Shown one piece after another: positions 9,374-9,465 of a stretch of 52,942 nucleotides of DNA. Numbering within the stretch: position 1 is the stretch's first letter; each line of letters opens with the position of its first letter. The stretch comes from Prevotella sp. GTDB taxonomy: Bacteria; Bacteroidota; Bacteroidia; Bacteroidales; Bacteroidaceae. The DNA is taken from NCBI GenBank assembly GCA_024695705.1, contig JAILHP010000118.1, positions 1-52,942 of the forward strand. The letters run 5' to 3'. Position numbers and translations under genes: made by a program. The notes beneath the pieces are model-generated. The model did no database searches and was not told the origin of the DNA. It saw only the letters and a list, made by a program, of their open reading frames with translations.

Positions 9374-9465
9374 AATGAAGAATTAGGAATGAAGAATGAA
9401 GAATCGGGCAGCGCAGTGGGAATGGCGGTAGCAAATTCTTCATTCTTCACTCTTCATTCTTCATT
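9374..9465 (+). repeat. In-frame inverted heptamer cassette (AATGAAG x4 ... CTTCATT x4)
   Basis: Arms 9374-9404 and 9435-9465 match at 28/31 positions around a 30-nt spacer. Encodes [31 protein letters not shown]. Confidence 0.9.

Follow-up and report, generated by a model that had tools for sequence, protein, structure and literature searches.

Mirrored 7-nt repeats form an in-frame hairpin in a variable beta-galactosidase loop of rumen Prevotella

Introduction

How does a hairpin built from tandem heptamers come to lie in the reading frame of an enzyme gene, and what does it share with a gene-bearing cassette near the beginning of the same contig? We addressed this question on a stretch of 52,942 nucleotides of Prevotella DNA (contig JAILHP010000118.1), referred to here as the window; the relatives are rumen Prevotella-type bacteria. 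A preliminary description of the window regarded the hairpin as the empty, non-autonomous partner of a cassette that carries a four-helix-bundle gene between araD and araA, both belonging to a two-tier family of elements. Bacterial heptamer repeats and the four-helix-bundle (IVS) proteins are both so far unexplained, and should the four-helix protein prove to act as mobiliser, the elements would constitute a mobile type of their own. In a literature search of limited coverage, extending to few subscription journals, we met no paper that connects heptamer arms with four-helix-bundle genes or that reports such repeats from proteins of Prevotella.

Results

The hairpin and its host gene

The element is an in-frame hairpin of 92 nt (9374–9465) composed of mirrored 7-nt repeats, situated in a variable loop of the beta-galactosidase gene. 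The features of the locus are the following:

7625–10570, forward strand: host GH2 LacZ-type beta-galactosidase gene, 981 codons (listed ORF 7898–10570)
9344–9367, forward strand: upstream anchor AIWDWVDQ, its DNA nearly invariant in orthologues; putative crossover region
9368–9469, forward strand: whole loop between the DQ and YGGD codons, 102 nt, the unit replaced between alleles
9374–9404, forward strand: purine-rich arm, about 4.4 AATGAAG units
9405–9434, forward strand: spacer of 30 nt, with CGGGCAGCGC at its 5′ end and GCGGTAGCAA at its 3′ end
9435–9465, forward strand: pyrimidine-rich arm of about 4.6 ATTCTTC units that pairs with the left arm at 28/31 positions
9470–9490, forward strand: downstream anchor YGGDFGD; putative crossover region

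The geometry reported in the preliminary description proved exact in every respect, including arm positions, pairing, spacer length and the two junction motifs, GCGGTAGCAAATT at 9425–9437 and GCGGAGCTAATT at 243–232 in the ara cassette. Each 31-nt arm consists of about four tandem units, and together the arms form terminal inverted repeats. The spacer ends are predicted to extend the stem with bulges; CGGGCAGCGC is a variant of the CGGCTGCGC found elsewhere in the family. The predicted RNA fold of 9360–9480 has an energy of –47.6 kcal/mol (z = –6.68), which none of 200 shuffled sequences equalled. The element resides in a GH2 ORF and not in an rRNA gene, and no ORF lies within it, the spacer being only 30 nt long. 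In an Rfam search of the element no family came near its gathering score, the single match being at chance level (16.4 bits vs 120). The order in which the arms are read, purine-rich first in the direction of transcription, had been taken as a common property with the ara cassette; it is uninformative because an inverted repeat reads alike on both strands, and the inner motif is found in both orientations relative to host ORFs. An assembly artefact was excluded: two metagenome contigs, independent of each other, contain the same element, as do contigs from RNA libraries.

Reading frame, predicted structure and RNA contigs

In the translated frame the insert accounts for about 30 residues between DQGL and FLYGGDFGD. 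The window assembly has an in-frame TAG at 7829–7831 (codon 69 from the ATG at 7625), after which the open frame resumes. Two alleles that are 99.4% identical and hold the same element have CAG at this position, so the element does occur in intact genes; the TAG is either a nonsense allele of the strain or a consensus error. As to the earlier statement that the insert is translated, a full-length reading is supported for the two CAG alleles, while the window assembly has its TAG; judging from conservation of the frame, the insert is presumably translated.

In an AlphaFold model of 620 residues (pTM 0.85), residues 500–520, which lie within the insert and follow a strand at 479–484, had pLDDT below 50; modelling a 267-aa fragment gave no usable information (pTM 0.46). 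At the insert position, solved homologues show a loop of 14 residues (6s6z). The insert is predicted to form a disordered surface loop following the last barrel strand. The same gene contains a further in-frame insert at 9800–9830, a solo GTTGAAA arm of 11 residues, and a short C-rich palindrome at about 8628–8656 that is read in frame as 10 residues.

Two contigs of one RNA library, 8315–9454 and 9437–10400 (4 and 6 differences, respectively), run through the element. Since DNA can occur in an RNA library, such contigs document that the sequence is present and say nothing of its level, its strand or any cleavage; bins that no contig covers (7341–7707 and 10644–11000) carry no weight. A spliced intron was considered and rejected: the contigs of run X1 contain no precise skip of the element, and wherever the letters of skipping joints in runs X3, X13 and X14 are given, they belong to other strains with a plain allele. 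A joint of X1 (9366–9731), one side of which measures 29 nt, was set aside.

Heptamer arrays throughout the genome

A periodicity scan of the window genome detected 557 period-7 arrays, compared with 1–79 for each other period from 4 to 12. These arrays are mostly 24–36 nt long and fall into more than 20 unit types; inverted pairs of neighbouring arrays within 2.5 kb number 66, and there are 44 distinct short inverted pairs with a spacer of at most 110 nt. Inside ORFs of at least 200 aa, which are mechanical ORFs and not curated genes, we counted 144 of the 557 arrays, the other 413 being outside the interior of long ORFs; the proposal that such elements can enter coding DNA is thereby borne out. 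In other genomes that were fetched, the AATGAAG element was found at 11 unrelated loci, in several cases within long ORFs and in either orientation, with an inner motif mostly of the CGGCTGCGC...GCGGTAGCAA type. Genome-wide, TAAATGA pairs often encode segments of the GLSFIIYHLSF type near ORF starts.

Loop classes among orthologues

From the fetched loci 216 loop matches were extracted, 188 of them distinct and 186 long enough; rows of 52% identity or more that also had 200 residues upstream formed a set of 173, for which a tree was built with the loop left out. Loops were classified by peptide patterns of our own making with two manual corrections, giving 111 plain loops and 62 that hold a hairpin, half a hairpin or a remnant; as the query itself held the insert, the sample is enriched for filled alleles and 62/173 is no frequency. 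Among the filled loops, 26 belong to the window's class, 12 have heptamers of another flavour, 20 are C-rich and 4 represent what appears to be an 8-mer class. Plain loops have mainly 9, 13 or 26 codons (range 27–78 nt) and filled ones reach 213 nt, all but one of the 62 keeping the frame. The allele that does not contains a long run of G, and an in-frame version of it is found among the proteins. In the upstream anchor the commonest 24-mer is present in 31 of the 173 rows and its CAA variant in 20. Aligning orthologues had been suggested as a check, and its outcome rules out an ancestral GH2 segment: the loop is plain in 111 rows and in the solved structures.

Repeat units differ within the family, yet the arms retain their length and their pairing, which supports this part of the preliminary description: the two arms of an allele match each other better than they match any arm of the other class in 20 of the 22 two-armed alleles. 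In one set of alleles (L036, L220, L113) the spacer is kept while both arms have changed to another unit, and a second set (L038, L208, L257) likewise combines one spacer with converted arms. Deletions of the hairpin tip are seen in L213, L198 and L210, and half elements and decayed arms persist among alleles. Filled loops L074, L235, L075, L201 and L202 have internal duplications, which in L074 and L235 include the host VDQG codons. Arms of quasi-palindromes are tidied by slippage and template switching; tandem slippage and template switching may likewise keep the arms matched here while the 7-mer drifts.

Preserved complementarity under changing units is also what one would see if a long mRNA hairpin of any family were favoured at this place, for example because it serves cleavage by RNase III, controls decay or causes pausing. 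The stem folds strongly (z = –6.7) and is similar in length to the 28-bp stem of the Coxiella IVS, described in the text of PMC4990558 as cut by RNase III, and the same sites repeatedly carry hairpins whose sequences are unrelated. However, selection on RNA structure is hard to reconcile with 111 of 173 rows lacking a hairpin, with the persistence of half elements, tip deletions and decayed arms, and with near-identical alleles that differ in hairpin presence; moreover, no precise skip is seen in the contigs of one RNA library that cross the element, although cleavage is not something that contigs can reveal. We consider such selection very unlikely.

Replacement of whole loops

Comparison of plain and filled sister alleles (L197/L044, L202 and L213/L132, L056/L053, L077/L003) revealed that the entire loop is replaced, with flanks 94–100% identical up to the loop edge (97–100% in L197/L044); none of the pairs has a target-site duplication or a duplicated flank. 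In L041/L220, among others, the stem-loop has been exchanged whole for one of another repeat class at the same site. The loop ends in FL in 45 of the 62 filled alleles and in WA, YA or FA in 93 of the 111 plain ones, so the swap takes in host codons beyond the hairpin. Out of 24 clusters with at least 92% identity in both flanks, five mix loop types, each time with a hairpin involved, compared with none of 13 all-plain clusters, a contrast based on few clusters. Closely similar filled loops recur in separate clades with loop identity above flank identity (L035/L270, 90%; L036/L220, 90%; L056/L173, 89%), the flank identities being ungapped, so that indels can lower them.

On the 173-row tree the filled/plain state changes 31 times (43–58 in shuffles), the repeat family among filled loops 25 times (24–35) and the plain length class 12 times (37–53); the tree comes from a quick search in which 67 of 168 inner branches are unsupported, which inflates these counts. 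A single clade for twelve window-class alleles was rejected (p-AU 1e-60) in a 37-row subset picked after the big tree had been seen. The search for a close plain sister of the window allele found none, since the element is present in every allele that is 92% or more identical to it, and the direction of change is read solely from the nesting of L202/L213 and L077 among plain loops.

We judge it somewhat more probable than otherwise that the element is a tolerated copy of the genome-wide heptamer-hairpin repeats, and that its loop is exchanged between homologous genes by short-patch recombination at the WDWVDQG and YGGDFGD codons. Hairpins would first have come from the dispersed repeat pool, and filled loops would then have spread sideways from orthologue to orthologue and to paralogues. 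The hairpin may raise the rate of exchange, for instance by stalling or breaking at replication, and the host would tolerate the insert peptide while having no need for it. The plain length classes also change (12 times) and L200 lies within a long mosaic tract, so recombination acts on this gene in general, perhaps without being driven by the hairpin. Recombination leaves two things unaccounted for, namely the first entry of hairpins at the site and the frequency with which four-helix genes are found inside them.

The alternatives are not fully exclusive of one another. In one of them, which follows the example of Rickettsia palindromic elements, every filled allele would have arisen when a dispersed repeat landed independently in a tolerant site and the old loop was deleted locally, homologous genes exchanging nothing. 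At least four unrelated repeat classes occupy the loop site, hundreds of arrays are available in one genome, and the gene has its other inserts at 9800–9830 and about 8628–8656, all of which would fit separate arrivals. Yet spacers unique to the loop site recur in distant clades, and unrelated filled families share their left edge and the FL right edge where plain sisters end in WA, making a history of independent insertions highly doubtful.

Four-helix-bundle cassettes and their relation to the empty element

The gene-bearing counterpart of the element is located close to the start of the window:

202–664, reverse strand: ara cassette, AATTGAT/AATTATC inverted arms (33/35) around a TIGR02436/PF05635 gene (269–610), between araD and araA

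All three TIGR02436/PF05635 genes of the window genome are within inverted pairs, with spacers of 374–456 nt. Inverted flanks were found at 22 of the 30 best-scoring four-helix loci in the genus, compared with 0 of 165 shifted controls, and at 16 of 30 four-helix loci in the phylum, compared with 0 of 171. The association of four-helix genes with inverted arms is therefore real, as had been proposed from a single cassette; a mobilising role of the protein is hypothetical. The four-helix-bundle protein of the heptamer cassettes is a putative homologue of Avd of diversity-generating retroelements.

The araD–araA spacer behaves like the GH2 loop in that it holds a cassette, a C-rich hairpin or neither: among 22 loci with araA downstream, drawn from the 30 best of 189 matching genomes, these states were seen 5, 3 and 14 times, respectively. 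In a related strain represented in run X1 (about 1–2% differences here), 143 other letters replace the 509-nt four-helix cassette (window 186–696), and past position 1382, at which the window carries a heptamer arm on its own, the sequence of that strain is C-rich and palindrome-like. Downstream of araD, locus L290 has an unannotated open frame of 313 aa followed by half a C-rich hairpin before araA; the same start is present in L291 and L293.

C-rich arms are likewise found with a gene of their own. Of three DUF559 genes (G000:C36:1994-2308, C118:2251-2565 and C129:3415-3699), two are flanked on either side by inverted C-rich arms; for the third, whose downstream side was not covered, the upstream arm is present. 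These arms belong to the hairpin family that is also found in the GH2 loop and the araD–araA spacer.

The junction motif had been put forward as kept between the empty element and the ara cassette. Its exact pattern occurs nine times in the genome, compared with 0.8 per shuffled genome, and all nine copies are directly ahead of a pyrimidine heptamer arm (by eye), most of these arms having no inverted partner. A looser form, GCGG.?AGC, stands ahead of 21 of the 45 arrays in the TTCA(C/T)T(C/T) classes and of 31 of 557 arrays overall (background 0.0036 per 28-mer). The motif is present in 9 of 44 short inverted pairs, in one of the three four-helix cassettes of the window genome and in 4 of 30 in the genus, the ara cassette among the four. 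As a family-wide mark the motif fails. Other heptamer classes have inner-edge motifs of their own, such as GTAATCAT ahead of AATTCTC arms and TGCGCAG ahead of CATTCTTC arms; together with the low counts this indicates that the junction motif marks one subfamily, which spans several unit types and includes gene-bearing members. In two orthologues of the ara cassette (L275 and L276) the two motifs found inside the empty element both occur, GCTGCGCC as the left one and GCGG/GCGAC-AGCC as the right one, and the four-helix cassette L323 has a GCGGTAGCAAA junction identical to that of the window element.

These observations bear on the two-tier family of the preliminary description, in which the four-helix protein would recognise or help to copy heptamer hairpins and gene-less hairpins would be moved in trans, perhaps via an RNA intermediate, by analogy with Avd. 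The part of this proposal that stood is the sharing of arms and inner motifs between empty elements and cassettes (L275, L276 and L323), alongside the frequency of four-helix genes inside inverted arms in genome, genus and phylum. Presence of the ara-site cassette in some genomes and its absence from others, the AATGAAG element at 11 unrelated loci including long ORFs, and the parallel pairing of DUF559 genes with C-rich arms (both arms seen in two of three) also point in this direction. Other results speak against the proposal: in the allele pairs the GH2 loop is replaced and not inserted into, target duplication is absent, and the 74%-complete window genome gave no match to reverse transcriptase (PF00078) or to Y1 transposase (PF01797, the sole transposase family searched). 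Besides, none of the three cassettes of the genome combines clean AATGAAG arms with this inner motif, and a sequence-specific mobiliser does not explain the unrelated hairpin family at the same sites. The text of PMC4990558 describes the S23p/PF05635/TIGR02436 family as one of no known catalytic role and its Coxiella member as probably not expressed. Mobilisation in trans therefore appears unlikely to us. Under short-patch recombination, the reading we prefer, the four-helix-bundle gene would be a passenger or partner of the same arm type.

A broader possibility covers both hairpin families. Transposase-free hairpin cassettes, each with a small gene (four-helix in heptamer arms, DUF559 in C-rich arms), might home into fixed sites and displace one another there via 10–25 nt of flanking homology, rewriting enzyme surface loops, with the four-helix protein as a trans-acting factor. 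We regard this combination as decidedly improbable.

Discussion

The closest precedent in print, as far as the text of the article by Kaasalainen et al. (2015, PMC4476775) goes, is the P6b stem-loop of the Nostoc tRNA-Leu(UAA) group I intron, whose stem is built on the 7-nt motifs TDNGATT or NNTGAGT; of the systems compared, it is the one that the element works most like. Both have a heptamer stem at one fixed site, with classes replaced repeatedly and independently while structure is kept. P6b, as described there, belongs to a non-coding intron, comes in two classes and is always filled, whereas the GH2 loop is translated, has plain alleles, is under a frame constraint and accommodates several heptamer flavours, an 8-mer class and a C-rich family.

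Dispersed heptamers have been described as GGGAATC in Xanthomonas and GGGGA(C/T)T in Nostoc (Rehm et al. 2015, PMC4692102) and as TAACTGA in Beggiatoaceae (MacGregor 2015, PMC4679880). According to these papers, the arrays resemble ours in their dispersal, a preference for about four units, frequent close inverted pairs, occurrence of some in ORFs and the lack of a known mobiliser. There, however, one unit dominates each genome and is read as a G-quadruplex or regulator site, whereas more than 20 unit types, not G-rich, coexist in the window genome. The term 'helix bundle' is absent from the main text of the Xanthomonas paper.

ORF-bearing 23S rRNA IVS, as presented in the text of Warrier et al. 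(2016, PMC4990558), share with the cassettes a four-helix ORF between terminal inverted repeats, a stem of about 28–35 bp and a patchy distribution that suggests horizontal transfer. The window element differs in having no ORF of its own, lying in an mRNA coding frame and appearing to be retained in RNA contigs. Its gene-bearing partners have the PF05635 ORF between repeats in all three cases, but they are located between protein genes.

Rickettsia palindromic elements and MITEs, in the account given by a review (PMC10969869), resemble the element as palindromic repeats fused in frame into unrelated protein genes. Such fusion at tolerant positions agrees with the frame being kept in 61 of the 62 filled loops, with the 144 arrays inside long ORFs and with a loop modelled at low confidence. 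The Rickettsia elements are a unique sequence of about 150 nt in that review, in contrast to arms of tandem heptamers; unlike them and MITEs, the element replaces host codons with no target duplication, and many families use one site. As for MITE membership, the inverted repeats are there, target duplication is absent, and the genes between heptamer arms are TIGR02436. In the manner of REP/REPIN sequences, the 557 arrays and 44 pairs are many, dispersed and mostly extragenic (413 outside the interior of long ORFs) short palindromes, often in inverted pairs; PF01797, the Y1 family to which the RAYT partner of REP/REPIN belongs, gave no match in the 74%-complete genome.

The value of the locus rests less on one copy than on the site as a natural assay of hairpin turnover. 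The GH2 loop is a single codon-defined position with many natural alleles and with plain/filled pairs whose flanks are almost identical, so that the unit, the edges and the rate of hairpin change can be read directly, and a conversion assay on beta-galactosidase is possible. Gain and loss of repeat-derived peptides in a rumen carbohydrate-active enzyme bears on the diversification of enzyme loops.

For annotation, it matters that low-complexity repeat inserts, such as one of 10 residues, recur in many proteins of the window genome. Heptamer arrays are also in frame in radA (14362–14400) and, at 10941–10973, in the ORF of a TonB-dependent receptor (10589–12625). The window further contains tandem repeats unrelated to the heptamers, with units of 73 nt (2.4 copies, 29502–29675) and 22 nt (42505–42696).
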